Shown: positions 1-20,091, counted from the first letter of the stretch. The stretch: 32,000 nucleotides of DNA from Promethearchaeum syntrophicum (GCF_008000775.2 NZ_CP042905.2:2070001-2102000), one strand, 5' to 3'. Notes: a model not told the origin generated them from the sequence alone. Numbers and translations are program-made.

Positions 1-519
1 CGTTAGTATTTTTATTTTTTTTTGAGTATATCTCATTAAAGTCGAAATTAATTCAATCATCAACGCCTGGTTCTTTGGATCGATTGCAACCATAGGATAT
101 GTTTTTATTTTTAATAGGTCTTCAACACGATCAGGGGTCATATGCCCTTTAAGATCTTGTTTGTTAGCTAGACACACAATTTCACATAGATCATCATCGA
201 TTAGATTTCTTGCGTGATCGATAATTTCCATCGTCGAAAGAACATTTTTTGGAGTCGAATCAGTAACAATAAAGATCAAATCCGAACCATGGATATATTT
301 ACTGAGTTGTTGTTTGATGAATGCTTTTTGACCTCCAAAGTCCCAGATCTTGAAAGGATTTATGTTTGGGTCGTTTAAAGTTGCCAAATTAAAACCCATT
401 GTAGGATTATATCTTCCTGTGATTAATTGCCCACGGATCATTTTAGAGATAGTAGTTTTACCTGTAGCTGGTGCTCCGACAAGACTGATTTTTGCAAATT
501 TTGCAAATTTTTGATCCAT
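1..519 (-). CDS. Arf/Arl-like small GTPase (C-terminal end runs off the left edge; absent from the supplied ORF track)
   Basis: My own reverse translation from ATG (519-517) stays open to position 1: MDQKFAKFAKISLVGAPATGKTTISKMIRGQ...FKIWDFGGQKAF...CLANKQDLKG. It has G1 P-loop GAPATGKT, Arf-type G3 WDFGGQ and G4 NKQD. Confidence 0.85.
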   Translation of the reverse strand, partial: MDQKFAKFAKISLVGAPATGKTTISKMIRGQLITGRYNPTMGFNLATLNDPNINPFKIWDFGGQKAFIKQQLSKYIHGSDLIFIVTDSTPKNVLSTMEIIDHARNLIDDDLCEIVCLANKQDLKGHMTPDRVEDLLKIKTYPMVAIDPKNQALMIELISTLMRYTQKKIKILT

Positions 520-614
520 AATTTTTAACTAGAGTTTACATTCTTTATATTGAGATATCATTGAGATAATATTGTGATAAGAAATAAAAAACAAACAAAC
601 TGAGAATAACCTAA

Positions 615-1391
615 ATGCCGAAAGATATACTTGAATTGGTCCGTGATTTTAATTATTTAGTAAAAGATGCAATTTCTGGCCCAAATTGTATTGATCCTAA
701 AGTGTGTCATGGAGATTGCTGCTTTATTCACATAGATATTCCAAGAATTTTAGCTCAACATTACATTGAAAAGGGTTGGGCAAGTAAAGAAGATTTCAAA
801 CGAGGTTCAACTTTTAGCTTTGAAATTAATGTTGATTTAGACATATTAAAGTGTGTGTTCTTTTCCAAAGAGGTAAATGGTTGTTCTCTGCATATAACTG
901 GAATGAAACCTCCACAGTGTTGGGTATATCCTACTGGTTTAGATCCTGATAAAGTAAATACATCATGTAAAAAAGCAGGTGGTTGGTTTATAAATGATTC
1001 TGTGAGTGTTAGGAACGCTAAAAATATTTTAAGTGATTATGTTTCAATGTGTCAAGCAGAAGCTATAGAAGAAAACTCTCCCGATAAGATAAATCGGAGA
1101 TTACAAGCATTATCTACAGAAAAATTTGATACCCTTACGCCAAGTAGTATTGCCGGAATTGAGGATGATTGGGATAGGTTCAAAATTTTGATAGGCGAGG
1201 GTTATAATTTAGGCGTACGATCTTTTTGTTCAAAAATTGATTGTGGGATTGAATATTTCGAGTGCCCTGTTGTGTGTGAACCTCTGAAGAAAAAATTACT
1301 AAAATTTCTTTCTGAGAAATTATCCCATTTTATTCAACAAAACGGGTTTAAATCTCAATATACATTCATGGAATTAAAAGGACAGAACTGA
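615..1391 (+). CDS. Cysteine-rich putative Zn/Fe-binding protein (YkgJ/UPF0153-like CxxCxxCC family)
   Basis: 258-aa ORF. The N-terminal motif C-IDPKV-C-HGD-CC-F resembles the Cx..CxGxCC signature of YkgJ-type metal-chelating domains. More Cys clusters follow (CSLH..PPQCW, CSKIDCGIEYFECPVVC). Confidence 0.5.
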   Translation: MPKDILELVRDFNYLVKDAISGPNCIDPKVCHGDCCFIHIDIPRILAQHYIEKGWASKEDFKRGSTFSFEINVDLDILKCVFFSKEVNGCSLHITGMKPPQCWVYPTGLDPDKVNTSCKKAGGWFINDSVSVRNAKNILSDYVSMCQAEAIEENSPDKINRRLQALSTEKFDTLTPSSIAGIEDDWDRFKILIGEGYNLGVRSFCSKIDCGIEYFECPVVCEPLKKKLLKFLSEKLSHFIQQNGFKSQYTFMELKGQN

Positions 1392-1607
1392 AATTAATTA
1401 TAAATATGCCGATTTTTGTCGGATCCCACATTGAATAAAATCTTAATTATATTCCAGTCGGACCATCACGATGTTATATCGGATTATATATTATCATCAT
1501 TCTTTTTAACATAACCTTAAATAACTACAATCTTAAAGTTTATTAATGGGTAAATAATTTTTGCTCAAAGTCTACTTTTTGACATAGTTAGAAATGGGAT
1601 TAGGGTT

Positions 1608-1976
1608 TTGGACGTGCAAAAAAAAATGGAAAATGAATTAAGCTTAACCGAATTGACTAAAAAATTCTTCAGTCGAAAATATGAATATATTATTCCTGAA
1701 AATCCAATCAAAGGTAGATCAGGTCAAAAATGGAAATTCAATGCGTTCGTGATGTATGAGAATCAGAAGTACGGTGTGTTTATCCGAGAGTGGAATAGGA
1801 GTATAGGGGTTAACCAGATTCGACAATTGGAGAAAGCTTGTAGGGATACAAAATGTGCAGGTGGAATCATAGTTGGAGATACATTTTCGTGTAATGCAGA
1901 GATTTTTGGAGAGAATTTAGGTATTCAAGTAGTGGAAAGGAGCACCCTAGTCCAAAAAATGCAGAATGGAATATAG
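1608..1976 (+). CDS. Small hypothetical protein with possible restriction-endonuclease-like (Mrr_cat-type) fold
   Basis: 122-aa ORF (TTG start in track; ATG at 1626 is the more likely start). The pattern GVFIREWNRSIGVNQIRQLEKA...GGIIVGDTFSCNAEIFGENLGIQVVERSTL resembles the core of Mrr-like nuclease domains, but the catalytic residues are not clearly present. Confidence 0.3.
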   Translation: MDVQKKMENELSLTELTKKFFSRKYEYIIPENPIKGRSGQKWKFNAFVMYENQKYGVFIREWNRSIGVNQIRQLEKACRDTKCAGGIIVGDTFSCNAEIFGENLGIQVVERSTLVQKMQNGI

Positions 1977-2053
1977 AAATTCCATATTGATATTCCAAAT
2001 CCAAATTTCCCATTCAATAACTTTTTCTAATAAAATTTCTTTCTTTTTATGTG

Positions 2054-3607
2054 ATGTCTTTTATTATACGTAAAGAAAAAAAGCAATTTGATGATGATAC
2101 TTTACTAAAGAATTTTGATGAGTGGTCTCAATCTTCAATCGAAAAGCATGATCTCTATAATTTTGAAGTTAAACTTGATTATGGTCTAGAGAAACAATTT
2201 GCCAAGAATATTTATGAATTAACTTCCTACGTATTTATCCCAAATGCATTGCAGATCAATAATTCGACATATACTAAGAGTCAGTTTTTTGCTGATCGGA
2301 ACAATTATTTAAGATTTAGAACTGCTAGAATGAGTTTAACGGGGCTTTTAAATAGTGAAAATGAATTATCTCCATTCAAAATGATTTTAATTAATATGAA
2401 TATGATTAAAAATGGTAATTTTGACCCGGAAATTATAAAAAAAGTTTCATATGAGTTAAGAGTAATGGGCTGTATTGTTAAGTCAAATTTAAGGGATCAA
2501 GTTGAATTTTTTATAACAAACATTGCTAATTTTGAGGAATCACCTGCTGATTATAAAAGTTTTATCTTATATCTTGATGATATTAAGAGTTTACAAATCC
2601 ATATGCAAAATTTAAGGATGGAATTCCAACTAATTCAAATTCCTGAGGAATTAAAAGAAACGTTTTCGTTTGTAGATGAATACATCAGCAACCAAATAGA
2701 AGAATTTATGACTTTATTATTATATAAATCCAATTTTAATGATGAAACAAGAGAGAAATTAGTTAGTTTGATTGAATTTGAACAAAAACACAAGAAACAA
2801 GTAAATAGTAAGATTTTGATTGAGAAAGATTCTGATAATAAAAGCGTTGTATATTGGAAAAGTATTCTGAAAAAATTTGTTCAAGGTGTTTTGTACTTAG
2901 ACCTTAACCAAAAGGATGAGAAATCTAAACCACTAGAATTCCTTTACTCAGTAGCAGCAGGATTAGCAATGTTTTTCTCCGTATTACTTGGGTTTTTTAT
3001 TGTTTCTCAATTTCAAAATCAAGAATGGGCTTATGTTGTTGCATTGGTTATTGTTTATATGTTAAAAGATAGAATTAAAGAAAATATACGTACCTTATTT
3101 CGAGGAATAGTTCAGAAATATTATCCTGATCGCTCTTTTGAAATTTTTGATAATAATAATAAAATGAAGATTGGTTCCTGTAAAGAAATCATGGATTTTA
3201 TAAAATGGGGAGAAATTCCTAATGAAATATTACAAATTAGGGAAGCCAGCCATAAAACTATGATCGAAAGAGAAGGAAAACCAGAAATTGTTCTCAAATA
3301 TTCCAAGATTATTGAACTGAAAACGAAAAATATTAGTGAGAATCATAAAAGGCATTCAAATATTAATGATATCATACGGTTTAATATCATAGATTTTCTT
3401 CAATATGCCGATGATCCCATTACAAATGAAGAATTTTGGGATTCTGAGAAGAAAAAAGTAATAAAAATCTCGAGTGTTAAAGTCTATCATCTCAATATAA
3501 TATTTAAGATGAAAATGCCCAACCAACAGATAAAATACAAGAAGATTCGTGTCATTTTGGATCAAAAGGGAATTAAAGAAGTAAAAGAACTGACCTTCGT
3601 ATTATGA
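2054..3607 (+). CDS. Hypothetical membrane protein (two central TM helices), no recognisable family
   Basis: Long ORF (track start GTG 2051; ATG at 2054). Hydrophobic segments LEFLYSVAAGLAMFFSVLLGFFIVSQF and WAYVVALVIVYMLKD are flanked by large soluble regions. I recognise no catalytic motifs. Confidence 0.6.
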   Translation: MSFIIRKEKKQFDDDTLLKNFDEWSQSSIEKHDLYNFEVKLDYGLEKQFAKNIYELTSYVFIPNALQINNSTYTKSQFFADRNNYLRFRTARMSLTGLLNSENELSPFKMILINMNMIKNGNFDPEIIKKVSYELRVMGCIVKSNLRDQVEFFITNIANFEESPADYKSFILYLDDIKSLQIHMQNLRMEFQLIQIPEELKETFSFVDEYISNQIEEFMTLLLYKSNFNDETREKLVSLIEFEQKHKKQVNSKILIEKDSDNKSVVYWKSILKKFVQGVLYLDLNQKDEKSKPLEFLYSVAAGLAMFFSVLLGFFIVSQFQNQEWAYVVALVIVYMLKDRIKENIRTLFRGIVQKYYPDRSFEIFDNNNKMKIGSCKEIMDFIKWGEIPNEILQIREASHKTMIEREGKPEIVLKYSKIIELKTKNISENHKRHSNINDIIRFNIIDFLQYADDPITNEEFWDSEKKKVIKISSVKVYHLNIIFKMKMPNQQIKYKKIRVILDQKGIKEVKELTFVL

Positions 3608-3843
3608 TTATACCTTAAAATATCTAATAAATTTACTTTTAAAATCGAATAATTGTATCTGAATGTTTTTTTGGGATTTTACTTTTAGTTTGTTAGGAAA
3701 TACTCATGAAATTTAATTGGCGAGATGACTTATCTGACCCAACTGAATTAAGACTCCCTATTTTTTAGAGAGTGCTGATTATGACGAAGATCTTGAGTAA
3801 TGATCGTTAATTTCGGAGTATTTCCTAAGTGGTGGAATTATAT

Positions 3844-6114
3844 ATGTCTCGTCGCACAAAAATGACTGAAGATATTTTAAAAATGATGGAAAATCCGAAA
3901 CAGATCAGAAATCTTGCTCTAATCGGCCATATAGATCATGGAAAAACAACATTATCTGATTCTCTTTTAGCAGAAGCTGGACTTTTAGCAGAAAGTTTGG
4001 CGGGAGAAGCAAGAGTATTAGATTATCTTGAAGAAGAACAAAGACGAGGCATTACAATAAAATCTGCTAATATTTCATTATATTATGAGCATAGTCTTGA
4101 AAAATCGCTTCCCTTCTTGATAAACTTGATTGACACTCCCGGGCATCTAGATTTCTCTGGGAAAGTTACCCGAGCTCTTCGGATGGCAGATGGTGTCATT
4201 GTTATTGTCGATAGTGTTGAAGAAGTAAGTAGTCAAACAGAAACTGTTGTTCGTCAAGCATTAGATGAAGCTGTCCGGCCAATACTATTTATAAACAAGA
4301 TAGATCGCCTTTTTAAAGAATTAAAACTTGACATGGAAGAAATCAAGGAAAAATTTAGTCGAATCATTCAAGATTTTAACAAATTAATATTCATGTATGG
4401 AGATGAATTGGCTAAATCTAACTGGATGGTTTCAGCTGAATTAGGTTCCGTGATTTTTGGGTCTGCACTTCATAGATGGGGATTTGTAATATCTGATCTT
4501 AAAACAAAAAATCACTCATTACAATATTTTGAAAACAAATACCAAGATGGCACTTATAAAGAAATTTCTTCATTATATCCCGTTTGGAAGAGTGTTCTTG
4601 CAGCTGTTGTTCAATTTGTTCCAGATCCAGCTCAAGCTCAATCTTACAGAACACAAACAATATGGAGTGGGGATATCGAGACTGAAATTGGAAAAGCTAT
4701 TCAAAAATGTGATCCTACTGGACCTTTAGTAATAGGTATGGGGAAAGTTCAAAAAATTAAGAATAGATTAATTGGAACTGGAAGGATATTTTCAGGAACT
4801 TTGAAAAGAGGGCAACATGCATGGCTTGTGAATGATGGATCAAAAACTTCGGTCAATCAATTGAGTATCTTCATGGGTTCTAGAATGGAAACTGTTATAG
4901 AAATTCCAGCAGGTAATATTGCAGCTATAGGTGGCATTAAAAAAATTAGCAGTGGAGAAACAATTTTTGATATTAAAAATATAGATGAAGCTAAACCCTT
5001 TGAGGCTGTAAAATATGTGAGTGAACCTGTTGTAACTGTTGCAGTTGAACCTGATATGTTAAAAAATCTTGCTCAATTACAAGAGATTCTCGAAGATATT
5101 AAAATAGAAGACCCAAATATTAATGTTGAAATTAGCAATGATTCCGGTGAATGTCTGCTATCTGGTATGGGACCATTGCATTTAGAAATCGTTGCAAAAA
5201 CAATAAAAGAAAGAGGTATTGAAGTTTCAGTTTCAAAACCAACAAGCGTATTTCGAGAATCAGTTCAAAAAATTAGTAAATATCACGAAGCAAAAAGCCC
5301 CAATGGATTGAATTCAATACAAATGCTGGTTATGCGTATGGATCCCTCGTCTGTAGAATATTTTAGAGGTGCCAAACGGCATATATTAGAAAATGAATAC
5401 TTACGGATAAACGATTTGAAAGAAAAAACCAATTTTAGTGAATATGAAGCCAAAGGGCTATGGAATGTGGATCGGTTTCAAAATATTATTATTTCTAGAT
5501 TGGAAGAAGATACAGGTATTGTATACAATGAAAATGATGAAATTAGCCCTAAGTCTCTGAAAAAACCAAAATCTCAAAAAGCAAAACCAAGTAGTCAAAG
5601 ACAAATAACTCATGAAATGCGAGATCAAATCATTAAAATCATTGGTAATTTATGCAATAACGGGACAATCGCTAAAGAACCGATGTCAGAATTAAAAATT
5701 ATCATTAAATATGCCCAGATTGTATCCGATCCTGAAGATTCTAATTATTTTGAAATTTCAACGATGATTAATGATGCATTTATCAATTGCATTCGTGAAG
5801 CTCAACCAGTTTTATTAGAACCTATATATCGAATGTTAATAACATCTCCCGAAGAACACATTGGGACAGTGACTTCTCTTATAAATCAATTTCAAGGGAA
5901 AATTAATGAAATCAGCCAGGATGCATTTAAATCATACATTGACGCGAAGATGTCTGTTAGGAAATCAATTTTATTTGCGGATGAAATTCGCGGTCAAACA
6001 TCTGGACGTGTTTTTTGGCAGAATTTATTTGATCGATTTTCACCTGTGCCAGAACATGATTTAGAAGAAATTGTAAAAGATATTAAATTTCGAAAAGGAT
6101 TGGCGTTTTTCTAA
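3844..6114 (+). CDS. Elongation factor 2 (aEF-2/eEF2 family) paralog, divergent translocase-like GTPase lacking the diphthamide histidine
   Basis: G1 GHIDHGKTT, G3 DTPGHLDF and G4 NKIDR are present with EF-2 domain order, and the C-terminal QPVLLEPIY motif is present. MSRRTKMTEDIL (ATG 3844) matches the usual aEF-2 N-terminus better than the GTG at 3829. The domain IV tip reads VSDPEDSNYFEIS where HxDxxHRGxxQ is expected. Confidence 0.85.
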   Translation: MSRRTKMTEDILKMMENPKQIRNLALIGHIDHGKTTLSDSLLAEAGLLAESLAGEARVLDYLEEEQRRGITIKSANISLYYEHSLEKSLPFLINLIDTPGHLDFSGKVTRALRMADGVIVIVDSVEEVSSQTETVVRQALDEAVRPILFINKIDRLFKELKLDMEEIKEKFSRIIQDFNKLIFMYGDELAKSNWMVSAELGSVIFGSALHRWGFVISDLKTKNHSLQYFENKYQDGTYKEISSLYPVWKSVLAAVVQFVPDPAQAQSYRTQTIWSGDIETEIGKAIQKCDPTGPLVIGMGKVQKIKNRLIGTGRIFSGTLKRGQHAWLVNDGSKTSVNQLSIFMGSRMETVIEIPAGNIAAIGGIKKISSGETIFDIKNIDEAKPFEAVKYVSEPVVTVAVEPDMLKNLAQLQEILEDIKIEDPNINVEISNDSGECLLSGMGPLHLEIVAKTIKERGIEVSVSKPTSVFRESVQKISKYHEAKSPNGLNSIQMLVMRMDPSSVEYFRGAKRHILENEYLRINDLKEKTNFSEYEAKGLWNVDRFQNIIISRLEEDTGIVYNENDEISPKSLKKPKSQKAKPSSQRQITHEMRDQIIKIIGNLCNNGTIAKEPMSELKIIIKYAQIVSDPEDSNYFEISTMINDAFINCIREAQPVLLEPIYRMLITSPEEHIGTVTSLINQFQGKINEISQDAFKSYIDAKMSVRKSILFADEIRGQTSGRVFWQNLFDRFSPVPEHDLEEIVKDIKFRKGLAFF

Positions 6115-6178: not shown

Positions 6179-8233
6179 ATGAATATTAGAAATATACTTA
6201 ATAAAAATAGAACTAAGCAATTTTTTTTTCTATTTCTAATTTACATTTTAATTACCTTAGTGTCATTTTCTAATTTTTCATTTAAGCCATCAAGTTCTGA
6301 ATCTATTCACTTGAAAGTTGGAGCTTATGAGAACAGCCCGAAGATTTTTACCAACGAACAAGGTGAGATTGATGGTTTTTTCCCTTCGATTTTAGGTCAT
6401 ATTGCTGATAAAGAGGGATGGGAATTGGAATATATTCATGGAAATTGGAGTGAAAGTTTAGCCCTCCTTAAGGCAAATCAAATAGATATTTTACCTGATG
6501 TTGGTTTTTCATACGATCGTCAAATGGAGTATGATTTTAATAATGAATCTGCGATAACTGGTTGGGGTATTGCTTATACCCATGATGAATCAGATATCTA
6601 TTCTATGCAAGATTTAAAAAATAAAAAGATCGGAGTAATGAAAGATGATATTAACTATATTGGACCCTTGGGAATAAAAATTATATCTGATCAAAATAGA
6701 TTAAATTGTACTTTTGTTGAATATGATAGCCTTGAAGATGTTTTAACTAGTTTAAATCTCAAAATCGTTGATGTGGGCATCGTAAATGAGTTTTTTGGAA
6801 ATTTAAATGCTTATAAATTTGATGTGAAAAAAACTTCAATCGCGTTTAATCCTATCGATTTTAAATTTGCTTTTCCTAAAAATGCAAGTTTAAATTCGTT
6901 CTTGATTGAGAAAATAGATAATTGGTTAAAGACTTCTAAAAGTGACCTTGATTCTATCTATTATCAAGAAGCCGAAATATACTTATCTGATCAAGAAAGT
7001 TCAATTCCTTCATGGATATTCCCTAGCTTTTTAATTTTAATCGGTTTAGCTGCATTTTTAACAATTTCTGCAATGACTTTGAGATATCAAGTAAAAATTA
7101 GAACGAAGAGTTTACATGATTTAAACCAAGAATTAAGTACAGAATCAATCCAGAAGAAAAATCAATTAGCAAATATTGTAGAAAATTCAAACGATGGGAT
7201 TATTAGTGCTGAATTAGATGGAACAATTAGGTCTTGGAATAAAAGTGCAGAAGTTATTTTTGGTTTTTCATCAGAAGAGATTATTGGAAAAAAATTAGAT
7301 CTTATAATTCCGTCAAATCGTTTTAATGAGGTCAAATATATTATTGATAAAATAAAGCAAGGAGAGCCTGTCAATCATTTTGAAACTAAACTTATGAGAA
7401 ACGATGGTAAACTTCTCGATATATCAATAACAGCTTCTCCATTAAAAAACCTAAAAGGTAAAATTAATGGCTTTTCCGCAATTGGACGCGATTTTACAGA
7501 AACAATTGAGAGACAAAAATTATATCAAGACCAAATTCTAAAAGCCTCTAAATTTAAATCAGATTTCATGGCTTCTATGTCACACGAATTAAGAACCCCT
7601 TTGAATAGTATCATCGGCTTTACCGATGTCATTTTAGAAAGAATAAGTGGGGAAATTAATGAGGAACAAGATAAATACCTCACACATGTAAAAACTTCAG
7701 CTATGCTTCTATTAGATTTAATAAACGATATTTTAGATATTACAAAAATTGAATCGGGTAAAATGGAACTGAATATTGAAGAGGTCAATCTAAGTCAGAT
7801 AATTAGTCAAGTTGATACAATGATAAAACCAATATACATGAAAAAAAGCCTAATTTTTGAAGTGCAAGAAATTGATAAAGAGAAAGTTATTCGAGTAGAT
7901 CGGTTGAGGTTTAAGGAAATACTTTTTAATCTACTTAGTAACGCTGTGAAATATACAAAAGAAGGAAAAATTATGATAAAATTTTCAGAGGAAGAAGAGT
8001 TTTGGAAATTTGATGTAATAGATACGGGTATAGGAATCAAAAAAGAAAATTTTGACATCTTGTTCAAAGATTTTAGAAGGATTGCTTCTAAATATGTAGT
8101 GGCAACAGAAGGAACAGGGCTCGGATTATCTTTGTCTAAAAGATTAGTCGAATTCCATGGAGGAACTATTTCTTTTACCAGCACTTTCGGAAAAGGGTCA
8201 AAATTTACATTTACAATTCCAAAACAATTATAA
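6179..8233 (+). CDS. Membrane sensor histidine kinase: extracytoplasmic solute-binding-protein-like domain, TM, PAS, HisKA, HATPase_c
   Basis: N-terminal TM/signal anchor FFFLFLIYILITLVSF. An SBP_bac_3-like region follows (LKVGAYENSPKIF..GEIDGFFPSILGHIA..), then a second TM (WIFPSFLILIGLAAFLTISAM) and a PAS domain. The kinase core has H-box SHELRTPLNSIIGF, N-box LLSNAVKYT, G1 DTGIGI and G2 GTGLGLS. Confidence 0.9.
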   Translation: MNIRNILNKNRTKQFFFLFLIYILITLVSFSNFSFKPSSSESIHLKVGAYENSPKIFTNEQGEIDGFFPSILGHIADKEGWELEYIHGNWSESLALLKANQIDILPDVGFSYDRQMEYDFNNESAITGWGIAYTHDESDIYSMQDLKNKKIGVMKDDINYIGPLGIKIISDQNRLNCTFVEYDSLEDVLTSLNLKIVDVGIVNEFFGNLNAYKFDVKKTSIAFNPIDFKFAFPKNASLNSFLIEKIDNWLKTSKSDLDSIYYQEAEIYLSDQESSIPSWIFPSFLILIGLAAFLTISAMTLRYQVKIRTKSLHDLNQELSTESIQKKNQLANIVENSNDGIISAELDGTIRSWNKSAEVIFGFSSEEIIGKKLDLIIPSNRFNEVKYIIDKIKQGEPVNHFETKLMRNDGKLLDISITASPLKNLKGKINGFSAIGRDFTETIERQKLYQDQILKASKFKSDFMASMSHELRTPLNSIIGFTDVILERISGEINEEQDKYLTHVKTSAMLLLDLINDILDITKIESGKMELNIEEVNLSQIISQVDTMIKPIYMKKSLIFEVQEIDKEKVIRVDRLRFKEILFNLLSNAVKYTKEGKIMIKFSEEEEFWKFDVIDTGIGIKKENFDILFKDFRRIASKYVVATEGTGLGLSLSKRLVEFHGGTISFTSTFGKGSKFTFTIPKQL

Positions 8234-8271
8234 ACTGATGTAAAAACTAATAAATACACATTAAAACAGAT

Positions 8272-8691
8272 TTATTCTAAATATTTTATTACTAATTCCC
8301 TAAATTCTTTAATCTGCAAGGGTTTTGATATATAATCATTAAAACCTGAATTTAAAATTCGTTCTTTATCTCCTTTCATTGCAAATGAAGTTACAGCCAT
8401 AATTGGTGTTTTTTTATATTTTTCCAGCTTTCGAATTTCTTTGCAAATATCAATCCCGCTCATATCAGGTAGCTGAATATCTAAAATAATAACATCAATA
8501 TTGTTACTTGCTATTGATTGAAGCCCTTCTTTTCCGGTAATAGATGTTAATATATTTAAATTAGGAATAGTTCCTAATACTGCTTTAAATAATTCCATGT
8601 TTTTTTCATTGTCTTCCACAATGAATATTTGTTTTTCTTCTGTCATACTTCGTTCCTTCAATTCGAACAAAATTGCCATTATTTCAAACAA
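8272..8691 (-). CDS. Single-domain CheY-like response regulator receiver
   Basis: IFIVEDNEKN...VIILDIQLPDMSG...TPIMAVTSFAMKGD...DYISKPL gives the acidic pocket, phospho-acceptor Asp, and conserved T/S and K. The likely true start is the internal MTEEKQ at 8646. Confidence 0.9.
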   Translation of the reverse strand: MFEIMAILFELKERSMTEEKQIFIVEDNEKNMELFKAVLGTIPNLNILTSITGKEGLQSIASNNIDVIILDIQLPDMSGIDICKEIRKLEKYKKTPIMAVTSFAMKGDKERILNSGFNDYISKPLQIKEFRELVIKYLE

Positions 8692-11182: not shown

Positions 11183-12319
11183 TTAACGTTTTAAATAAAT
11201 CGACACAATATCTCCATCTTCTAAATTATGGTCTGTTTGTATAAATTTTTGCCCTGGATGTTTGGCAGATTTTCCCCAGACTAATGCATATCGGTAGTTA
11301 ATTAAGAACCTTTTGTGCAGTTTCAAGCAAAGCTTTTTAATATTATCTCCTTTATGAAGAATGATAGGTTCACTCATATCAACCTCTTTTTGAGGGGGTT
11401 TTAGGTAAACACGGATTAATTCCAGCTCTTGAAAAATTTGATGTCGTAATTTATCAATATTTTCTTTATTCAGAGCTGAAATTTTGACCCAATGATTGTG
11501 CCCGATTTTGTTTGTGATTTCTTCATCTTTTATTTTCTTTTTTGCTAAATCTTTTTTGTTTATAACTACAAATTCCTTTGTATAGATTCGATTTCCCATT
11601 ATATGGTCAATCAGCTGATCTGGAGTTACATGAGGTTCAGAAAAATATACACTTGCGTTGCTAAAACCCATTTCATTTAGAATTCCCTTTACTTCTTCCC
11701 GATCCATATCTTGATGTCCATTATATGTAAATCCAATTCCACCACGATTTGTCTTTGTTATCTGAATTCTGGGGGGTTTTTCATTTAAACGCATTCCTGC
11801 ATTAAAAAGTTCTTGTCTTATAGTTGTAAGGTGGGAAAATTCAATGGACCCATCTGGAAGAAAACAAATCAAATTTAAAATCAAATCAGCACTACGAACC
11901 GCACCGAGAATTTCTCTCCCTCTCCCTTTTCCACTTGCTGCTCCAAGAATAATACCAGGTAGATCGATCAGCTGTATTTTTGCTTCTTCTATATCCATCA
12001 TTCCAGGAATCGCTGTTAATGTGGTGAAATCATAAGATGCAACTTTTGAATCTGTATTTCCTCTTGTAAGAAGGTTAAGTAGAGAAGATTTCCCTACTGA
12101 TGGAAATCCAATAAACGCTACTTGGGAATCTCCCGTTTTCTTAACCCCAAATCCAGAACCTCCTCCTTTTTTGGAAGTTGCAATTTTGATGAGGTCATTT
12201 CGGAGCTTTGCAATTTGTGCTTTCGTATAATTTATTGCTTTCTGCGTAGCTTTATTTTTTTGAGTGCGACTAAGCCGTTCTTCAAAATCCCGAATTTTCT
12301 CTTCTATTTTTTCACTAAT
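11183..12319 (-). CDS. drg: DRG-family (developmentally regulated GTP-binding protein, Obg-like) GTPase with C-terminal TGS domain; proposed non-canonical ATT start
   Basis: The track ORF (11183-12001) begins at MMDIEEAKIQLIDLPG, which is the G3 motif. My translation shows the same frame stays open upstream to 12325. That stretch encodes ISEKIEEKIRDFEERLSRTQKNKATQKAINYTKAQIAKLRNDL...VAFIGFPSVGKSSLLNLLT, the DRG N-terminal helix plus the G1 P-loop. The TGS-like C-terminus is IRVYLKPP...GDIVSIYLKR. There is no ATG/GTG/TTG between the in-frame TGA (12326-12328) and 12001. Confidence 0.8.
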   Translation of the reverse strand: MSEKIEEKIRDFEERLSRTQKNKATQKAINYTKAQIAKLRNDLIKIATSKKGGGSGFGVKKTGDSQVAFIGFPSVGKSSLLNLLTRGNTDSKVASYDFTTLTAIPGMMDIEEAKIQLIDLPGIILGAASGKGRGREILGAVRSADLILNLICFLPDGSIEFSHLTTIRQELFNAGMRLNEKPPRIQITKTNRGGIGFTYNGHQDMDREEVKGILNEMGFSNASVYFSEPHVTPDQLIDHIMGNRIYTKEFVVINKKDLAKKKIKDEEITNKIGHNHWVKISALNKENIDKLRHQIFQELELIRVYLKPPQKEVDMSEPIILHKGDNIKKLCLKLHKRFLINYRYALVWGKSAKHPGQKFIQTDHNLEDGDIVSIYLKR

Positions 12320-12325
12320 TTTTTG

Positions 12326-12534: not shown

Positions 12535-12930
12535 TTAAGATGTAATAGATGTTATTTCAATTTCTAATAATCTTTGAATTTTCTTTCTGAACTCGATTAT
12601 ATTTAATGGTTTTGATATATAATCACTAAATCCTGAATCTACTATTCTTTCTTTATCTCCTTTCATCGCAAATGAGGTTACAGCGATAATTGGTGTGCTC
12701 TTAAACTTGTCCATCTTCCGAATTTCTTCACAAATTTCTGTTCCATTAATTCCTGGAAGTTGAATATCTAGAAGAATAATATCCGGATCTTCGGATTTAA
12801 TTAATTCAAGGCCGTCTATTCCATTCTCCTTGGTTAAAATTTCTAGATTCGGGATCATTCCTAAAACGGCTTTGAATAACTCCAAATTTTTTTTATTATC
12901 TTCAACAATAATGATTTTTTTCAAATTCAT
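12535..12930 (-). CDS. Single-domain CheY-like response regulator receiver
   Basis: KIIIVEDNKKN...IILLDIQLPGING...TPIIAVTSFAMKGDKERIVDSGFSDYISKPL. It is a close paralog of the receivers at 8272 and 19696 and is transcribed divergently from the GTPase gene at 13182. Confidence 0.9.
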   Translation of the reverse strand: MNLKKIIIVEDNKKNLELFKAVLGMIPNLEILTKENGIDGLELIKSEDPDIILLDIQLPGINGTEICEEIRKMDKFKSTPIIAVTSFAMKGDKERIVDSGFSDYISKPLNIIEFRKKIQRLLEIEITSITS

Positions 12931-13181
12931 ATACTTCCCTAATAGAATTCTGTTTATTGTACTTGTATTAACATGATTATATTTATCATTAATTTTGGGA
13001 AATTTTCTAAAAAAAACTTATCTAAACATTAGATTTATTCTTGATTTTTTTCTCAATTCTATGATTAAATGTAATGTAAAAAGAAATTAAGGAAAATATG
13101 TTTTTAGCAAGTAATTACTATACATAATTTATATTTCATGTAATTTAATGTAAAAAAAAATAATTAAACGGTAATTAAAAA

Positions 13182-14471
13182 ATGCCCAAAGGAATCGTTC
13201 TAGTTGGATGGGATAATAAAATGGGATCTACAATTGAGGTGAAATTCCCAAAGGATTATCAAATCCAAAATAAAAAAATAACTCAGTATTTGGTAACTCT
13301 ACAAACTTTCGGAAGAAGTTCAAATATTCAAATTCGAGATAATGAGGATATAATTTTAATTTTTGGTTATCCGGTAAGAGAAGGGCCTGCAAATTATGAC
13401 TTTATTATTGTAATTCTGGATAGTTTAGAGGAATCCGAAATTCCAAAAATTCAAAGTAAACTAAATCTTGAAGGAGGAAATATTTTAAAAACTCCCAAAC
13501 CTAAAAGATCAAAATTATTCCTGGATTTTGCAGGAAATTTCATCAAACAGGAACAAAAGAAAATAGTTTTTATGGGATATCCGAATTCAGGGAAAACTAC
13601 AACAAAATTATTCTTTTTTGAGAAGATTCAGAGTGAGAAACTTTTAGAAACTACATTTACGCCCACAAAAGGAATTGAAACGGATCGGTATAGTTTAATT
13701 GATTCGAATATTGCATTATTTGATACTTCTGGCCAAGAAATTGAAAGATGGTTTAACATAGATGAAACTCCTTTAATTGGTTCTGACCTAACAATTTTCT
13801 TTATAACAGCAATGGATTGGAAACGAAACCCAGAGAAGGTAAAAAATGATTTAAATAGACTTATTCAACTCTCTGAAAAACTTGATGAGTCTGATCACGA
13901 TTTAGTTCTATTCTGCCATAAATTTGATGAAATTACTGAGAATATAGAAGAATTTAAAATAAGTCTTATAGATTTCACTCAAACGTTAGATATCTCTGTA
14001 TTTTTCACTTCAATTAAAGATACGGGGAATTTTGATATTTATATTGGTTATCAACTCATGTTGAGAAAATTCTCACCACTATTTGCTTTTATAAATAATT
14101 CACTCAATCCACTTATGAGCAGGTATCAACAAAGCGGAAATCTCCTATTTATTCTCGATTCTGATTTCACTCTAATCACAGATTTTACTCATAGCATTGA
14201 GGATTTTGATGTGGCGAACATCCAACAGTTTAAAAGTACTACAATCAAAATGATGAAAATTATTAATTTAGATGATAATAAATCTAGTGATTTCATTACT
14301 TTTACTTACGAATCAAGTGCTAAAATAGTCGTTTGTTTAAGAATATCTAAATTTAATCCCGATTTTTCTTATGTTATAATGCAAGCTGATTCATATCAAC
14401 TTGTGGATGAAATCTATAAGGAATATAATAAAATGAAAGAGAATTTTACGTGGGTAGAGCATAATAATTAA
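13182..14471 (+). CDS. Three-part small GTPase: N-terminal longin/uDENN-like domain, Rag/Gtr1-like G domain, C-terminal roadblock-like domain
   Basis: The N-terminal ~100 aa (GIVLVGWDNKMGSTIEVKFP...DFIIVILDSLEESEIPKIQ) have an alpha/beta regulatory-domain pattern. The G domain has G1 GYPNSGKTT, G3 FDTSGQE and G4 variant HKFD. The C-terminal part is GNLLFILDSDFTLITDF...KIVVCLRIS. Confidence 0.7.
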   Translation: MPKGIVLVGWDNKMGSTIEVKFPKDYQIQNKKITQYLVTLQTFGRSSNIQIRDNEDIILIFGYPVREGPANYDFIIVILDSLEESEIPKIQSKLNLEGGNILKTPKPKRSKLFLDFAGNFIKQEQKKIVFMGYPNSGKTTTKLFFFEKIQSEKLLETTFTPTKGIETDRYSLIDSNIALFDTSGQEIERWFNIDETPLIGSDLTIFFITAMDWKRNPEKVKNDLNRLIQLSEKLDESDHDLVLFCHKFDEITENIEEFKISLIDFTQTLDISVFFTSIKDTGNFDIYIGYQLMLRKFSPLFAFINNSLNPLMSRYQQSGNLLFILDSDFTLITDFTHSIEDFDVANIQQFKSTTIKMMKIINLDDNKSSDFITFTYESSAKIVVCLRISKFNPDFSYVIMQADSYQLVDEIYKEYNKMKENFTWVEHNN

Positions 14472-14481
14472 AATAACTCTC

Positions 14482-14513
14482 TTTTTTTTTTAAAAAAAAT
14501 TTTATAAAAAAAA
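14482..14513. terminator. Bidirectional oligo-T/oligo-A tract in the 45-bp gap between convergent GTPase genes
   Basis: A T10 run (14482-14491) is followed by two A8 runs, which read as T8 on the minus strand. Oligo-T tracts are the established archaeal termination signal. Confidence 0.5.
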
Positions 14514-14516
14514 GGT

Positions 14517-15668
14517 TTATTCAGTTAAATTTCTTAATTTAAACACTTTTCTCAGTTCTGACATTACATCATTTCTATTCGGTTTAACTTTTTGTTGCAC
14601 TTTTTTCTTTGGTGGGGGAGGAGGAGGTTGAACTATTTGTTTATTTGATGATTTCACTTCAATATTTTTTGTACTTGGAATTTTTCCTAGATTCGATCCT
14701 CCAATTATACCTTTTAATTCTTGAAATTGATTCATTATTGAACTATTTAACTTAATTACCATTTCTGAAAGAATTGAAACTTGTTCTTCTAAATTTTTTG
14801 CAATTTTATCTGGACCGAAAAATTGCTTAAAGGATTTTGCAAATTCGGGCTCATTTGCATAGAAATTATAAATACTCGATTGAATTAATTCAAAACTAAA
14901 TTTCTTCTCATTAAGCGATGTTGAGATTATTTCAGAGATCATTTCTAAATTAATTTGAAAATCTACTTCTTGACGTATATCAGGATCTGATTTATGTAAG
15001 AGTACTAATACATATGGATTTTCTTTGAAATAACTCACTATATCTAGAATTTTATCAAAATATTCTATTGATTCATCAAAACGTTCCGAATCTTGGATAT
15101 CTATAACATAGATAATTAAATCGATATGTAAGAAAAATTCTTCTGGATTTTTTAAATAATCCTGCCTGTGGAATTCTTGTCCACCGAAATCCCATATCGT
15201 TAAATTAAAATTTTCAACTTCAATTTTTTGAATGTCCACTCCTTTTGTAGGAGGAAGATTAGTTATATCGCCAAATTTTGTTTTTCCTTTTAAGCTTTCA
15301 AGCATGGATGTTTTTCCTGCGTTATTAAGACCCAAAACTATTATTTTTTGCTTGGATTTTTTTAAATAAAGTGATCTTTTTTTCCATGCTCTTGATAATA
15401 ATTCAGCTGTTAAAATCCATTTTTCGAATAGTTCTTCACTAATACTAGTTTCTTTTGCAATTTTTTTAATTTTTTCAGATTTTAATTTTACAAAATCTCT
15501 AATTTGGGTGATTTTGTATTTTTTAAGTTTCTCTCCATATTCATTCTTGCATTCTTTTAAAACGCTTGGATTCATATTCAAAATTTCTGAAAAAGAATTT
15601 GGTGTTTTTTCAACAACAAGAAATTTCTTACAAAAAATATCGATTATTTTTTCTTTATCTGTTGACAT
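14517..15668 (-). CDS. Arf/Rag-like small GTPase with N-terminal extension, C-terminal coiled coil, poly-proline tract and WH2-like tail
   Basis: G1 GLNNAGKTS (Arf-like GLDxAGKT), G3 WDFGGQE and G4 variant HKSD. The C-terminus is ...QPPPPPPKKKVQQKVKPNRNDVMSELRKVFKLRNLTE. Confidence 0.8.
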   Translation of the reverse strand: MSTDKEKIIDIFCKKFLVVEKTPNSFSEILNMNPSVLKECKNEYGEKLKKYKITQIRDFVKLKSEKIKKIAKETSISEELFEKWILTAELLSRAWKKRSLYLKKSKQKIIVLGLNNAGKTSMLESLKGKTKFGDITNLPPTKGVDIQKIEVENFNLTIWDFGGQEFHRQDYLKNPEEFFLHIDLIIYVIDIQDSERFDESIEYFDKILDIVSYFKENPYVLVLLHKSDPDIRQEVDFQINLEMISEIISTSLNEKKFSFELIQSSIYNFYANEPEFAKSFKQFFGPDKIAKNLEEQVSILSEMVIKLNSSIMNQFQELKGIIGGSNLGKIPSTKNIEVKSSNKQIVQPPPPPPKKKVQQKVKPNRNDVMSELRKVFKLRNLTE

Positions 15669-15746
15669 AATTTTAATGTTTTTTTCATTCCTAAAACTCT
15701 TCCTATCGAATTCTCAGTTAATAAATATAAAATCAGTGAAAACATT

Positions 15747-18700
15747 CTAAATTAATTTCTTGGGTAATGTAAATGAAAAGGATGAACCTTCACCCAATAC
15801 ACTGGTAAATGTGATATGTCCTCCGTGAAGTTCAATTAACTTTTTTGTCAACATCAACCCCAATCCAGTTCCTTCAATAGATTCCACATAATCTGATTCA
15901 ACTCTCTTAAATTCTTGAAAAATAATTCCAAAATCCTCTGGTGCAATCCCAATTCCAGTATCAATTATTTTAAATTTCCAATTCTTTTCATCTTCCATAA
16001 AATCTAATTTTATTCCGCCTTTTTCAGTATATTTGATAGCATTACTTAAGAGATTTAGAAGTATTTCTTTAAACCTTATCGGATCTGCATTAATAATTGT
16101 GCCTTTTTCAAACCCAACTAACTCAAAATTCAATCCTTTTTTTTTATAAAGTGGTTTTACTTCGATTTCAATTTGAGAAACCAAATTCAATAAATCAAAA
16201 TCTCTGTACTTTAATTCTACTTTTCCTGCTTCTATTTTTGAAATATCTAAAATATCATTTATTAGATTTAATAAGTGTTCTGCCGATGTTCTGACGTTAT
16301 TAAGATAATGATCTTGTTTTTCGTTCACATCTCCATAGAATTTCTCAATCAAAATATCTGTAAAGCCAATGATACTATTTAATGGAGTTCTTAGTTCATG
16401 AGACATTGATGCCATAAAATCAGATTTAAATTGGGAAGATTTAATAAGTTGATCTTGATATTGTTTTTGCTGCTCTAATGATTCAGTAACATCACGAGAA
16501 ATCGAGGAAATTCCAACAATATCTCCCTTTAAATCTAAAATTGGGGAAATTGTCACATTAACACTTAATACCTTTCCATCTTTTCTAAGACGTTTAGTTT
16601 CAAACAATTTGTAGGATTCACCTTGAACAACTTTTTCTATTAAGTTGGGAATCTCTTCCATGCGATCAGGTGGAATCAACATGCTTATTGATTTTTCTAA
16701 AACTTCCTCCAATGCATAACCATATATTCTTTCAGCACCCTTATTCCATGATTTAATCATTCCCTCTTTATCCATGCTTACAATCGAATCTGATGAAGTT
16801 CCAACAATACTTGCTAATCTCTTCGTTTCTAATTTATATTCTATACTGATTATTCCTAATTTAATTCGTGTTAAAATTTCTTTTAATAATCTTTTTTCTT
16901 CATCTAAAAATTCCTTATTAATTTCATAAACTACCTCAATTTTCAATGGAATATCATTAATTTTATCAGAAATGGTTAATTTCCATTCGGATTCTTTAAA
17001 ACTTGTTGTTTGGGCTTGATTTTCTCCATAAATTATTTTTACCATAGTTATTTCTGGATATTGCCATGATGAACGAATCAGAGGTAGAACTCCATAGAGC
17101 AATTCCTTGATGGTAATGTCTGGTACAACTAAAAGACTGGAAATTCCATATAAACATTTTAATCCTTTAATCCTGACTTGAAGCATTAATTCGGATTCCA
17201 AAATTTGTTTTTCTTTTTTTTTCCGGTCAGTAATATCTTCAAATATTTCTAAAAGTGCCGGTTTTCCATTGAAATTTTCAATTTTTGTGGAACTAATCTC
17301 AAAATCTCGTTCTTCGTCAAATTTTGACAAAAATAATTTGTCCTCAAATTTTAAAGATTTAATATTCTGACTGAGTGATTTGTTTCTCAGTGGACACATA
17401 TCATCACATGGTTGCTCTCTGCCTCTTAAAATTTTATAACATATCTTCCCGTCAAGAATTCCGTCATATATTTTAGAAGAGCTTCTATTATGGAATAAAA
17501 TTTCATAATCTTCAGATATTACAAAAACGGGATAATTTAGAGTATTTAATATAATATTTAATTGATTTTTTGAATTTTCCAGCTCCCTAGTCCTTAATTC
17601 TACCTTTTGATCTAAATCCAAATTTAAATTTCGTAATCTGAATTCTGTTTCCTTTAATTTATTCTCCCGTGATTTACTTTCAGTAATATTTCTGACAAAA
17701 ACAGCAATTTTATTCTCATCATAGAAAAACAATCTCGCCTCAAAAATTTCAATTATCTCATTTTGTTGTTTTAAAGGAAATTCAACTACCTGTGGTTTTT
17801 TTGTTTTAAATACTTCTAAAGATTTTTCTTCAATCAATTTTGAAATCTTATTTGGAAAACCAATAAAAAGATCTTTTCCCAATAAATTATCTAAAGGAAC
17901 GTGAAGTAAATTTTTATCTCCGTGAAATTCCAAGACATCTCCCTTTTTAGAGAGTAATAAAAATAAATCAGGAATAGCTTGAAAAATGGTTGTAAATTTT
18001 TTAAGTGAATTTCTTAAATTTTTCTCATTTTTTTTCTGAATCTTATAATAACGCATTTTTGCGATTCCTAAGGAGAGATTATTCACCATTTTTGATATTA
18101 ATTCCACATCATCTTCATCGAATGTGTTTTTATTTCCTGAATATATGCCTAACACACCAATTACAATATTCTCTATAATGATTGGGATTGAAATTGATGA
18201 TAGAAAACCTGATCCATCGAAAACAGTTTTCCAATTTTTAAATTTTTTTTCTGCACTTAAATCGTTAATAATATAATTTTTTCTTGTTCTTATCGCTGTT
18301 CCGCTAGGACTTTGATCTTTTACAGATTCGGACCATGTAAATTTCAATTTTTTTCCATCATATTTAGAATTATCAAAGATATTATATCCAGCTAAAGCAA
18401 CTGGTTTTATTGATTTTTCTTCATCATATTGGACTAACCCAATCCAACAAAATTGGTAATTTTTAAATTGAATAATCTCTTCACAAAATTCTTGAAACAT
18501 TCCCATTTCATTTTTTGCATTTGAAATTAGAAAGTTAGTTTGACCTTGAATAAAGGTTAATTTCTCAATCTTTCTCTGTCGCGTTATGTCAGTTCCTAAG
18601 CTAAGAACACCTTCAATATTCCCTTTTTTATTATATACATTAGAATTATGCCATCTAATGATTTTTTCTAATCCTTTTTTAGTTTGTACAGCATTTTCAA

Positions 18701-18932
18701 AATAATCTACTTCTTTTTCACCATTTATCACCTTATTAAAAACTCTCTCCATTTCTTCCCTTTTAGAATGAGGAATACAAGTTTTGAACCAATTTTTACC
18801 CAATATTTCATTTTCTCTATATCCAAGTATTTTGTTACCCTTTACGTTAATATAAAGTATTTTCCCTTTTCTATCTAATTGTAGAACTATCGCATCAATA
18901 ATGTTCAAATATTTTCTATCGTTTCCAATCAT
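15747..18932 (-). CDS. Cytoplasmic multi-sensor histidine kinase (PAS-GAF-PAS-PAS-uncharacterised module-PAS-HisKA-HATPase_c)
   Basis: 1061 aa with no TM segments. It has PAS-like blocks, a GAF-like block (FCWIGLVQYDE...IGVLGIYSG), H-box SHELRTPLNSIIGF, N-box LLSNAIKYT, DTGIGI and GTGLGLM. Confidence 0.9.
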   Translation of the reverse strand: MIGNDRKYLNIIDAIVLQLDRKGKILYINVKGNKILGYRENEILGKNWFKTCIPHSKREEMERVFNKVINGEKEVDYFENAVQTKKGLEKIIRWHNSNVYNKKGNIEGVLSLGTDITRQRKIEKLTFIQGQTNFLISNAKNEMGMFQEFCEEIIQFKNYQFCWIGLVQYDEEKSIKPVALAGYNIFDNSKYDGKKLKFTWSESVKDQSPSGTAIRTRKNYIINDLSAEKKFKNWKTVFDGSGFLSSISIPIIIENIVIGVLGIYSGNKNTFDEDDVELISKMVNNLSLGIAKMRYYKIQKKNEKNLRNSLKKFTTIFQAIPDLFLLLSKKGDVLEFHGDKNLLHVPLDNLLGKDLFIGFPNKISKLIEEKSLEVFKTKKPQVVEFPLKQQNEIIEIFEARLFFYDENKIAVFVRNITESKSRENKLKETEFRLRNLNLDLDQKVELRTRELENSKNQLNIILNTLNYPVFVISEDYEILFHNRSSSKIYDGILDGKICYKILRGREQPCDDMCPLRNKSLSQNIKSLKFEDKLFLSKFDEERDFEISSTKIENFNGKPALLEIFEDITDRKKKEKQILESELMLQVRIKGLKCLYGISSLLVVPDITIKELLYGVLPLIRSSWQYPEITMVKIIYGENQAQTTSFKESEWKLTISDKINDIPLKIEVVYEINKEFLDEEKRLLKEILTRIKLGIISIEYKLETKRLASIVGTSSDSIVSMDKEGMIKSWNKGAERIYGYALEEVLEKSISMLIPPDRMEEIPNLIEKVVQGESYKLFETKRLRKDGKVLSVNVTISPILDLKGDIVGISSISRDVTESLEQQKQYQDQLIKSSQFKSDFMASMSHELRTPLNSIIGFTDILIEKFYGDVNEKQDHYLNNVRTSAEHLLNLINDILDISKIEAGKVELKYRDFDLLNLVSQIEIEVKPLYKKKGLNFELVGFEKGTIINADPIRFKEILLNLLSNAIKYTEKGGIKLDFMEDEKNWKFKIIDTGIGIAPEDFGIIFQEFKRVESDYVESIEGTGLGLMLTKKLIELHGGHITFTSVLGEGSSFSFTLPKKLI

Positions 18933-18983
18933 AAGTTTGCTACCTTATCTAGTAGTTAAAAAAAGAAGTATATATCATATATA

Positions 18984-19616
18984 TTACTTCATGCCTTCTG
19001 GTGAAAACATATTATTTAACACATTTTCTATCTCTTTAGCGGATTCTCTCATCATTTTAATATAATTTAAAAAATCTCCTTCTGAAATTTCAGTTTTTTG
19101 TTCTATGATTAAATCACAAAATCCTAAAATCGTGTTAACTTCGCCTCTAATTTTAACATTAAAAGATTCTAAAGGCACTAAATATTCCTTATTCATAAAC
19201 ATTGAATGAATTTTAACAAAAAAATCCAAAAATGCAGCATTATCATCAGTTAAAATTCGTTTGGTTCCAATCTTTCGAAATAATTCTTCAATTTGCTGAA
19301 AAATAAATGTAGATATCACTGGTAATTCTGCATCTCTTAAAAATATTAAAGCATAAGATTGTTTTCCTCCTCTTGCACTTGCATCTTCCACTTCTATTTT
19401 GCAAACTTGAGAATAAAATTTCTTATAATCTAAATAAACATATTTATTAGTTGTATTCAACGAATCTCGAAGTAAATCTCTGATGAAATCTTCATCTTTA
19501 ATATCGATTGATGAATAAAGAGATGTAGGACCTAAGATCTGGTCATATTTTCCAATAATTAATAAAAATTGCTCTTTATCTAGCCATTTTTTGAAATTGC
19601 TGTATTTTTCCGACAT
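18984..19616 (-). CDS. Longin/roadblock-like domain protein with a C-terminal His-less DHp (HisKA-like) helix pair
   Basis: The N-terminal part is FLLIIGKYDQILGPTSLY...SYALIFLRDAELPVISTFIFQQIEELF. The C-terminal NVKIRGEVNTILGFCDLIIEQKTEISEGDFLNYIKMMRESAKEIENVLNNMF aligns by eye to MSHELRTPLNSIIGFTDILIEKFYGDVNEKQDHYLNNVRTSAEHLLNLINDIL of the adjacent kinase, with Val at the phospho-His position. Confidence 0.55.
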   Translation of the reverse strand: MSEKYSNFKKWLDKEQFLLIIGKYDQILGPTSLYSSIDIKDEDFIRDLLRDSLNTTNKYVYLDYKKFYSQVCKIEVEDASARGGKQSYALIFLRDAELPVISTFIFQQIEELFRKIGTKRILTDDNAAFLDFFVKIHSMFMNKEYLVPLESFNVKIRGEVNTILGFCDLIIEQKTEISEGDFLNYIKMMRESAKEIENVLNNMFSPEGMK

Positions 19617-19695
19617 TTTAACGCCATGAATTTTTTATTAAATAATTTAAGAAGAATATTTTTAAAAATAAAATTCTCCAAAATAGGAGATCCGT

Positions 19696-20091
19696 TCATA
19701 TCCTTAATAAGTTTTGAATTTTCTCTCTAAAATTTTTAATAAGTAATGGCTTTGATATATAATCATTAAAGCCAGATTCTAATATTCGTTCCTTATCTCC
19801 TTTCATAGCAAATGAAGTTACAGCAATAATAGGAGTTTTATTAAATTTTTTATCTTTTCGAAGTTGTTTACAAATATCTGTTCCACTTATATCGGGAAGT
19901 TGAATATCTAATAAAATTATATCTGGATTACTTGAATATATTAAATTAAGACCATCTCTGCCAGTAGCTGAGGTTAGAATTTCTAAATTTGGGATAGTCG
20001 CTAAAACTGCTACAAATAATTCCAGATTTTTTTCATTATCTTCGATGATATATATTTTCTTCTTCAAATTATTTCCTCCATTTTCATGCAC
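19696..20091 (-). CDS. Single-domain CheY-like response regulator receiver (first gene of a 4-gene co-directional array)
   Basis: KIYIIEDNEKN...IILLDIQLPDISG...TPIIAVTSFAMKGDKERILESGFNDYISKPL. An alternative TTG start sits after an internal GGAGGA (..AATGGAGGAAATAATTTG..). Confidence 0.9.
   Translation of the reverse strand: MHENGGNNLKKKIYIIEDNEKNLELFVAVLATIPNLEILTSATGRDGLNLIYSSNPDIILLDIQLPDISGTDICKQLRKDKKFNKTPIIAVTSFAMKGDKERILESGFNDYISKPLLIKNFREKIQNLLRI

Follow-up and report, generated by a model that had tools for sequence, protein, structure and literature searches.

A conserved module of two-component signalling genes and Rag-like small GTPase genes in an Asgard archaeal order

In a 32,000-nucleotide stretch of the Promethearchaeum syntrophicum genome (hereafter the window; positions 2,070,001-2,102,000; the genome is closed, a single contig of 4,324,194 bp with a GC content of 31.1%), genes for eukaryote-like small GTPases stand among genes for sensor histidine kinases, output-less receivers, and a longin protein, and this combination is a conserved signalling module of one Asgard order. 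Few prokaryotes are as closely related to eukaryotes as the Asgard archaea, and we take the source lineage to be Promethearchaeum (Promethearchaeota), very probably the cultured MK-D1 lineage. By Pfam search, the window encodes four small GTPases, three PAS histidine kinases, four single-domain receivers, and one longin protein. These parts are present, and their linkage is conserved. With modest confidence, we propose that receivers phosphorylated by the kinases regulate a pair of Rag-like GTPases, either directly or via the longin protein, with phosphotransfer and binding as predicted steps.

The locus had been picked out in a sequence-only reading of its first 20 kb, whose gene calls and coordinates all proved correct. 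Pfam profiles bore out the Rag/Arf, receiver, and HisKA domains, including the four Arf/Rag-like GTPases (Arf or Gtr1_RagA matches) and the four receivers with no output domain (Response_reg matches with the phosphorylation residues intact). Both PAS kinases counted in that reading (6179-8233 and 15747-18932) carry canonical HisKA domains, but the window total is three, the remaining one (23833-26754) lying outside the range it covered.

Conservation of the module across the order

The receiver at 12535-12930 (minus strand; REC3) is the module's core receiver. Using it to search 400 genomes of the phylum, we inspected 30 loci of ±1.5 kb. Its orthologs, 55-80% identical, occurred in >100 genomes from three families of the order. 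A GTPase was in range at 26 of the receiver loci, and at 21 of these the receiver stood head-to-head with a GTPase whose best match was the longin-Rag GTPase of the window (13182-14471), its N-terminal extension included, across gaps of 144-252 bp. In the window, gene coordinates place this divergent intergenic region at 12931-13181 (251 bp). Receiver loci without a GTPase were either truncated or had the GTPase 1.2 kb off. Several receiver loci carried a Rag-like GTPase of the type found at 9575-11077 on the receiver's other side, co-directional with the receiver, and two had a PAS kinase just upstream. Receiver-GTPase adjacency, on which the sequence-only reading had built its proposal, was checked in ~30 genomes and holds in at least three families of the order.

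Wider neighbourhoods of 14-20 kb from nine genomes, spanning several genera and the three families, gave a fuller picture. All nine combined PAS/GAF histidine kinases, receivers, and Rag-like GTPases, and kinases orthologous to the one at 15747-18932 were present in every module locus examined. The longin-Rag GTPase adjoined a 9575-type GTPase in seven of the nine, co-directionally and with the longin-Rag gene first; in one locus (L043), the two genes overlap by four nucleotides. In the window, the same pair is separated by a DRG gene and a receiver. The longin protein with a DHp-like hairpin was found in five of the nine neighbourhoods and, in L040, lies directly downstream of a receiver, as it does in the window. 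An Arf-like GTPase of the 14517-15668 type was present in several. The conserved loci include close kin and are therefore not independent, and the module is evidence about one order rather than a statistic across life.

In control loci from outside the order (L045-L047), receiver homologs had no GTPase neighbours. At E<1e-20, the longin-Rag GTPase was confined to two families of the order (f1 and f3). Within the genome itself, ~35 loci encode GTPases matching Gtr1_RagA; ~31 of these are outside the locus, and none of the ~31 has a receiver nearby. The nearest relatives are the metagenome-assembled genomes (MAGs) CSMAG_2474 and CSMAG_2396, both Promethearchaeum, with 76-77% amino acid identity across the Rag-like GTPase, and the gene order of the window is kept in Promethearchaeum MAGs. 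The spacings first read from the window all stood: 221 bp between the receiver at 8974 and the GTPase at 9575, 251 bp across the divergent pair (12930/13182), and 79, 51, and 78 bp within a co-directional array that runs from 19696 through 18984 and 15747 to 14517.

Kinases and receivers

The genome has 20 HisKA domains, mostly in hybrid kinases, and the three strongest belong to the three kinases of the window. HK1 (6179-8233, plus strand) is a membrane sensor kinase in which an N-terminal transmembrane segment, an SBP_bac_3 periplasmic solute-binding domain, a second transmembrane segment, and a PAS domain precede HisKA (H box SHELRTPL) and HATPase_c. HK2 (15747-18932, minus strand) is cytoplasmic, with one GAF and two PAS domains ahead of HisKA, which has the same H box, and HATPase_c. 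HK3 (23833-26754, minus strand), also cytoplasmic, has three PAS domains, HisKA, and HATPase_c, and its HisKA match is the strongest in the genome. An internal 390-bp tandem duplication at 25414-26187 corresponds to its repeated PAS domains. Amino acid sensing through an SBP_bac_3 kinase was considered as a general feature of the module and rejected because this domain occurs in just two of the ~11 module kinases examined, most of which have PAS/GAF inputs.

All four receivers consist of a Response_reg domain and retain the acidic pair, the phospho-accepting Asp, the Thr (Ser in one), and the Lys, and in alignment they look like functional phospho-acceptors. REC1 (8272-8691, minus strand; E=4e-25; D, D, T, and K conserved) probably starts at an internal ATG, giving a protein of ~125 aa. 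REC2 (8974-9354, plus strand; E=1e-16), which has Ser at the Thr position, is co-directional with the GTPase at 9575, 221 bp downstream. REC4 (19696-20091, minus strand) lies 79 bp upstream of the longin gene in the same direction. The alpha4-beta5-alpha5 face of a receiver is its canonical target-binding surface, usually altered by phosphorylation, and in REC3 this face (TSFAMKGDKER) is invariant in 26 orthologs. The genome contains 21 receiver domains; seven are single-domain receivers, four of them within this 12-kb stretch. No CheW was found in the genome, which sets the receivers apart from the CheY proteins of chemotaxis.

Rag-like and Arf-like GTPases

Two of the four GTPases are Rag-like and two are Arf-like, and inspection of the translations found intact G1-G4 motifs. 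The Rag-like GTPase at 9575-11077 (plus strand, 500 aa; Gtr1_RagA E=1.2e-14) was modelled with AlphaFold as a G domain (residues 1-172) followed by a roadblock region resembling the Rag-type C-terminal roadblock domain (CRD) and then by a C-terminal helical bundle (~380-500). The best Foldseek matches of this model were RagA/RagC, Gtr1/Gtr2, and LokiRagO, covering both the G domain and the CRD with a target-normalised template-modelling score (TMt) of ~0.5. On this model, its extension is a CRD, with no separate longin domain.

The second Rag-like GTPase (13182-14471, plus strand, 429 aa; Gtr1_RagA E=8.7e-8, also Arf) has its G domain, with G1-G4 intact, behind a longin-type fold: modelled residues 1-122 follow the longin topology b1b2a1b3b4b5a2a3. 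Its C-terminus (~320-421) was modelled as a roadblock-like beta-alpha domain, although this part of the assignment is weaker than the rest. Its best Foldseek matches were Rag heterodimers, the FLCN-Rag-Ragulator complex, Gtr1-Gtr2, and LokiRagO/LokiRagM. Longin-G domain-roadblock architectures have been reported from MK-D1 by Tran et al. (PMC10933270), and the reading of two Rag-like GTPases with fused roadblock/longin modules agrees with these.

The confidence of these models is modest. The multiple sequence alignments behind them held just 12 related sequences for 9575 (predicted local distance difference test, pLDDT, 77) and 14 for 13182 (pLDDT 69), and the predicted template-modelling (pTM) scores were 0.40-0.43. 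Pfam found no roadblock or longin domain in the GTPase extensions at E up to 1, so these assignments are based on AlphaFold topology and structure matches. In a sequence search of the PDB, 13182 had no match and 9575 just weak RagA matches. The earlier claim that roadblock or longin modules are fused to the GTPases therefore holds at the level of predicted structure but not of Pfam profiles, and not for a separate longin domain in 9575. A Gtr1/RagA-type G domain was detected by Pfam in 9575, 13182, and 14517, and a CRD behind the G domain in 9575 and 13182, from the models only. By these models, 9575 and 13182 are Rag-like GTPases with fused roadblock/longin modules. Both are predicted to have Rag-type C-terminal roadblock domains, and their adjacent, co-directional genes in seven of the nine neighbourhoods suggest the obligate heterodimer, joined through the CRDs, that is typical of the Rag/Gtr family. 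A Rag-like heterodimer of the two is therefore probable, on the pattern of RagA/RagC and Gtr1/Gtr2.

The Arf-like GTPase at 14517-15668 (minus strand, 383 aa) matches Arf (E=8e-24), Gtr1_RagA (E=4e-22), and SRPRB. It has an N-terminal extension of ~100 aa and a C-terminal one with a proline/lysine-rich tail, neither containing a Pfam domain. The other Arf-like GTPase (1-519, minus strand, 177 aa; Arf E=2.1e-17, also Roc and Ras) ends ~15 bp past the window start, with G1-G4 intact.

The longin protein and its DHp-like hairpin

The protein encoded at 18984-19616 (minus strand) has an FLCN-like longin domain (residues ~20-130; Pfam Folliculin E=5.7e-5) followed by a hairpin (~150-210). The sequence-only reading had called it a longin-like protein with a DHp domain lacking its histidine. 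The longin part stands, with a Folliculin score of 23.4 bits against a cut-off of 23.3. The hairpin is conserved, its motif IRSGxNTIxGFxELI being kept in an alignment of orthologs, and it looks like DHp helix 1 (HELRTPLNAIIGF) in which another residue stands in for the histidine, but the HisKA match is weak (E=0.19). Its protein-language-model neighbours in the Atlas are HisKA clusters at 0.85-0.88, under the 0.9 level. A DHp domain without its histidine in this longin protein is thus plausible but weakly supported.

Proposed mechanism and alternatives

In the circuit that we propose, the input would come from the sensor histidine kinases, which are cytoplasmic PAS/GAF proteins joined in some genomes by a periplasmic solute-binding sensor. 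These kinases would transfer phosphate to the single-domain receivers. Because the receivers have no output domain, they would act through phosphorylation-dependent protein binding, and their likely targets are the eukaryote-like GTPases of the module, with the longin-G domain-roadblock and G domain-CRD Rag-like pair at its centre. A phosphorylated receiver may bind the Rag-like GTPase that is its head-to-head partner, or the DHp-like hairpin of the longin protein, and binding would alter the nucleotide state or the membrane localisation of the GTPase. Alongside this pair, the module has an Arf-like GTPase and the FLCN/longin-like protein, the latter a candidate platform for GTPase-activating protein (GAP) or guanine nucleotide exchange factor (GEF) activity. 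Since the head-to-head arrangement is conserved, REC3 and the longin-Rag GTPase are our nominated interacting pair.

Several points weigh against this proposal. The Rag heterodimer at its centre is based on modest-confidence AlphaFold models (pTM 0.40-0.43; 12-14 sequences), and the DHp-like hairpin is a weak profile match at best (HisKA E=0.19). A complex prediction for REC3 with the longin-Rag GTPase gave no answer (score 0) and thus speaks neither for nor against binding. Conserved neighbourhoods indicate joint use rather than receiver-GTPase binding, and the kinases, the longin protein, or other proteins could be the targets. In addition, kinship among the loci means that the count of conserved loci overstates their statistical weight, and the module occurs in one order only. 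Finally, small-GTPase genes of MK-D1 are generally found outside operons with roadblock/longin genes (Tran et al. 2024, PMC10933270), a rule to which this locus is an exception, albeit a conserved one.

Some of these points feed an alternative that we regard as possible but doubtful, namely that the genes are co-located without being coupled. The two-component proteins would then form an ordinary circuit with another output, such as kinase feedback, a phosphate sink, or a distant target; the GTPases would be neighbours with an independent role in membrane trafficking; and the linkage would reflect chance or shared transcriptional control. The complex prediction lent no binding support that would count against this, and the general separation of MK-D1 GTPase genes from regulator genes (Tran et al., PMC10933270) is what it would lead one to expect. 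The DRG and EF-2 paralog genes, which are embedded in the locus yet not conserved members, likewise indicate that some neighbours are functionally untied. However, the head-to-head receiver/longin-Rag arrangement, with its 144-252 bp spacing, recurs over many genera in three families, which is difficult to account for unless co-regulation or co-function is under selection, and the distant receivers lack GTPase neighbours. With spacing and orientation conserved across families, mere co-location is less likely.

Another alternative, which seems to us rather unlikely, is that the receivers act on the longin-DHp protein and that the GTPases are regulated indirectly. In this case, the longin protein would be a pseudo-kinase scaffold that docks phosphorylated receivers as DivL docks DivK~P, and its longin domain would be a GAP/GEF platform for the Rag-like pair, like FLCN-FNIP or Mon1-Ccz1. 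The conservation of the DHp-like motif without its histidine and the co-directional receiver-then-longin pairing in the window and in L040 are consistent with such a scaffold, as is the fact that eukaryotic longin-type GAP/GEF complexes serve Rag/Rab GTPases (FLCN-FNIP, Mon1-Ccz1; PMC10933270). Yet the DHp resemblance is weak, no longin protein was present at four loci (L036, L038, L041, and L043) within the regions examined, and the receiver's most conserved neighbour is the longin-Rag GTPase rather than the longin protein. We keep to regulation of the Rag-like pair by phosphorylated receivers, directly or via the longin protein.

A much bolder version of that proposal, which we consider improbable, would have the phosphorelay control a Rag heterodimer via the receivers and an FLCN-like longin regulator with a pseudo-DHp docking hairpin. 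Its input in some genomes would be the periplasmic solute-binding sensor, a possible nutrient (e.g., amino acid) sensor, and the whole would be a prokaryotic forerunner of eukaryotic nutrient-responsive Rag signalling, with phosphorylated receivers in the role later held by GATOR/FLCN regulation.

Neighbouring genes

Two genes embedded in the locus were considered as members of the module and rejected, as both are missing from it outside Promethearchaeum. One encodes a paralog of EF-2/EF-G (3829-6114, plus strand; 761 aa) that has all EF-G domains and 35% identity to the canonical aEF-2 encoded at 3.08 Mb in the genome; it has the same position in Promethearchaeum relatives (L003) and is absent from the module elsewhere. 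The other encodes a DRG-type Obg-family GTPase with a TGS domain (11183-12325, minus strand; a stop-to-stop open reading frame matching MMR_HSR1_Xtn and TGS). In the latter, an in-frame TGA directly follows the GTG at the expected start, leaving no canonical start, while two relatives (L002 and L003) read through at that point (GTG AGA TTA...). This odd start may reflect an error in the sequence or non-canonical initiation.

Between the Arf-like GTPase at the window start and the EF-2 paralog lie two genes on the plus strand for proteins with no Pfam domain, one of 258 aa with a weak CxxCxxCC match (615-1391) and one of 518 aa (2051-3607). In a small open reading frame at 20635-21021 (plus strand), a 63-bp unit that specifies a QKEDNGGGGPQS-like motif occurs four times in tandem. 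Outside the window, ~3.2 kb upstream of its start, genome positions 2066807-2067418 encode another Gtr1_RagA/Arf GTPase (323 aa), probably part of the cluster described here. No tRNAs were found in the 32-kb window. By protein look-up, the window lies on a Logan contig of run DRR199588. For the sole RNA run with the region, the Logan contig has the same sequence as the 32-kb genome contig and is uninformative on transcripts and operons.

Significance

Asgard archaea carry ancestral Rag, roadblock, and longin parts, and we know of no account of how these are regulated in archaea. In light of this locus, two-component phosphorylation is a candidate regulator of pre-eukaryotic small-GTPase switches, and ancestors of the eukaryotic Rag/mTOR nutrient switch may be controlled by two-component signalling in archaea. 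The locus also departs from the published picture of MK-D1, in which GTPase genes do not share operons with those of their regulators. The arrangement is specific to one Asgard order, and the literature searched contains neither a description of it nor a report tying Asgard receivers or kinases to small GTPases. As a concrete, conserved, and testable answer on archaeal Rag regulation, the locus supplies specific protein pairs for biochemistry.

Comparison with known systems

Eukaryotic nutrient signalling to mTORC1 is centred on Rag GTPases and their roadblock/longin partners (Ragulator, FLCN-FNIP, and GATOR). Our module resembles this system in its predicted G domain plus C-terminal roadblock architectures, in its pair of Rag-like GTPases, and in a longin protein that matches the Folliculin profile. 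By contrast, its input consists of prokaryotic histidine kinases and receivers, one of its GTPases has a fused N-terminal longin domain, and there is no lysosome. Homologs of LAMTOR/Ragulator or GATOR did not turn up in the locus, although no search was aimed at them. Closer to home, the Asgard proteins LokiRagO and LokiRagM (8yl2, 9m28, 8zla) belong to the same Rag-like structural class and are matched by both models from the window, but they have no close sequence-level homology to the window GTPases. The literature searched reports no link between LokiRagO/LokiRagM and two-component genes.

The sequence-only reading had looked to Myxococcus xanthus for its precedent. In that bacterium, a Ras-like GTPase and a roadblock regulator are connected with the output-less FrzX and FrzZ and with RomR, which contains a receiver (PMC4316618; PMC13408092), and RomR/RomX acts as an effector of MglA-GTP rather than as an exchange factor according to a 2026 paper (PMC13408092). 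The fit is a loose one, in that two-component receivers without classical outputs are associated with a small GTPase in both cases. However, the Myxococcus kinase is the CheA-type FrzE, whereas the locus has canonical HisKA kinases in a genome without CheW, and MglA serves a motility-polarity oscillator, whereas the GTPases here are of the Rag/Arf type. Pfam found no separate MglB-like/Robl_LC7 roadblock protein in the window, where the predicted roadblock modules are instead fused to GTPases. With no CheA/CheW, no MglA-family GTPase, and no separate MglB, we set the Frz/MglA system aside as the class of this module.

The Streptomyces conservon is a conserved cluster of a histidine kinase (CvnA), a roadblock protein (CvnB), CvnC, and a Ras-like GTPase (CvnD) (PMC4316618). 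Like our module, it brings a histidine kinase together with a small GTPase and a roadblock fold in one gene cluster. Conservons are actinobacterial, though, with membrane-spanning kinases, and they lack single-domain receivers and encode the roadblock as a separate gene, whereas receivers are present here and the roadblock/longin modules appear to be fused. The four-gene order cvnABCD is not seen in the module, where single-domain receivers and longin proteins are encoded but a roadblock gene of its own is absent.

In the DivK-DivL pair of Caulobacter, a single-domain receiver docks on the DHp domain of a pseudo-kinase. The receivers of our module are also single-domain and are proposed to act by binding, and the hairpin of the longin protein is similar to DHp helix 1 with the histidine replaced, albeit as a weak profile match. 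DivL, by contrast, is a complete pseudo-kinase that includes a CA domain, while the DHp-like hairpin here is fused to a longin domain. For parts of the module, DivK-DivL and the conservon are closer precedents than Myxococcus, the former for a receiver that would act by docking and the latter for a gene cluster that joins a histidine kinase to a roadblock protein and a Ras-like GTPase.

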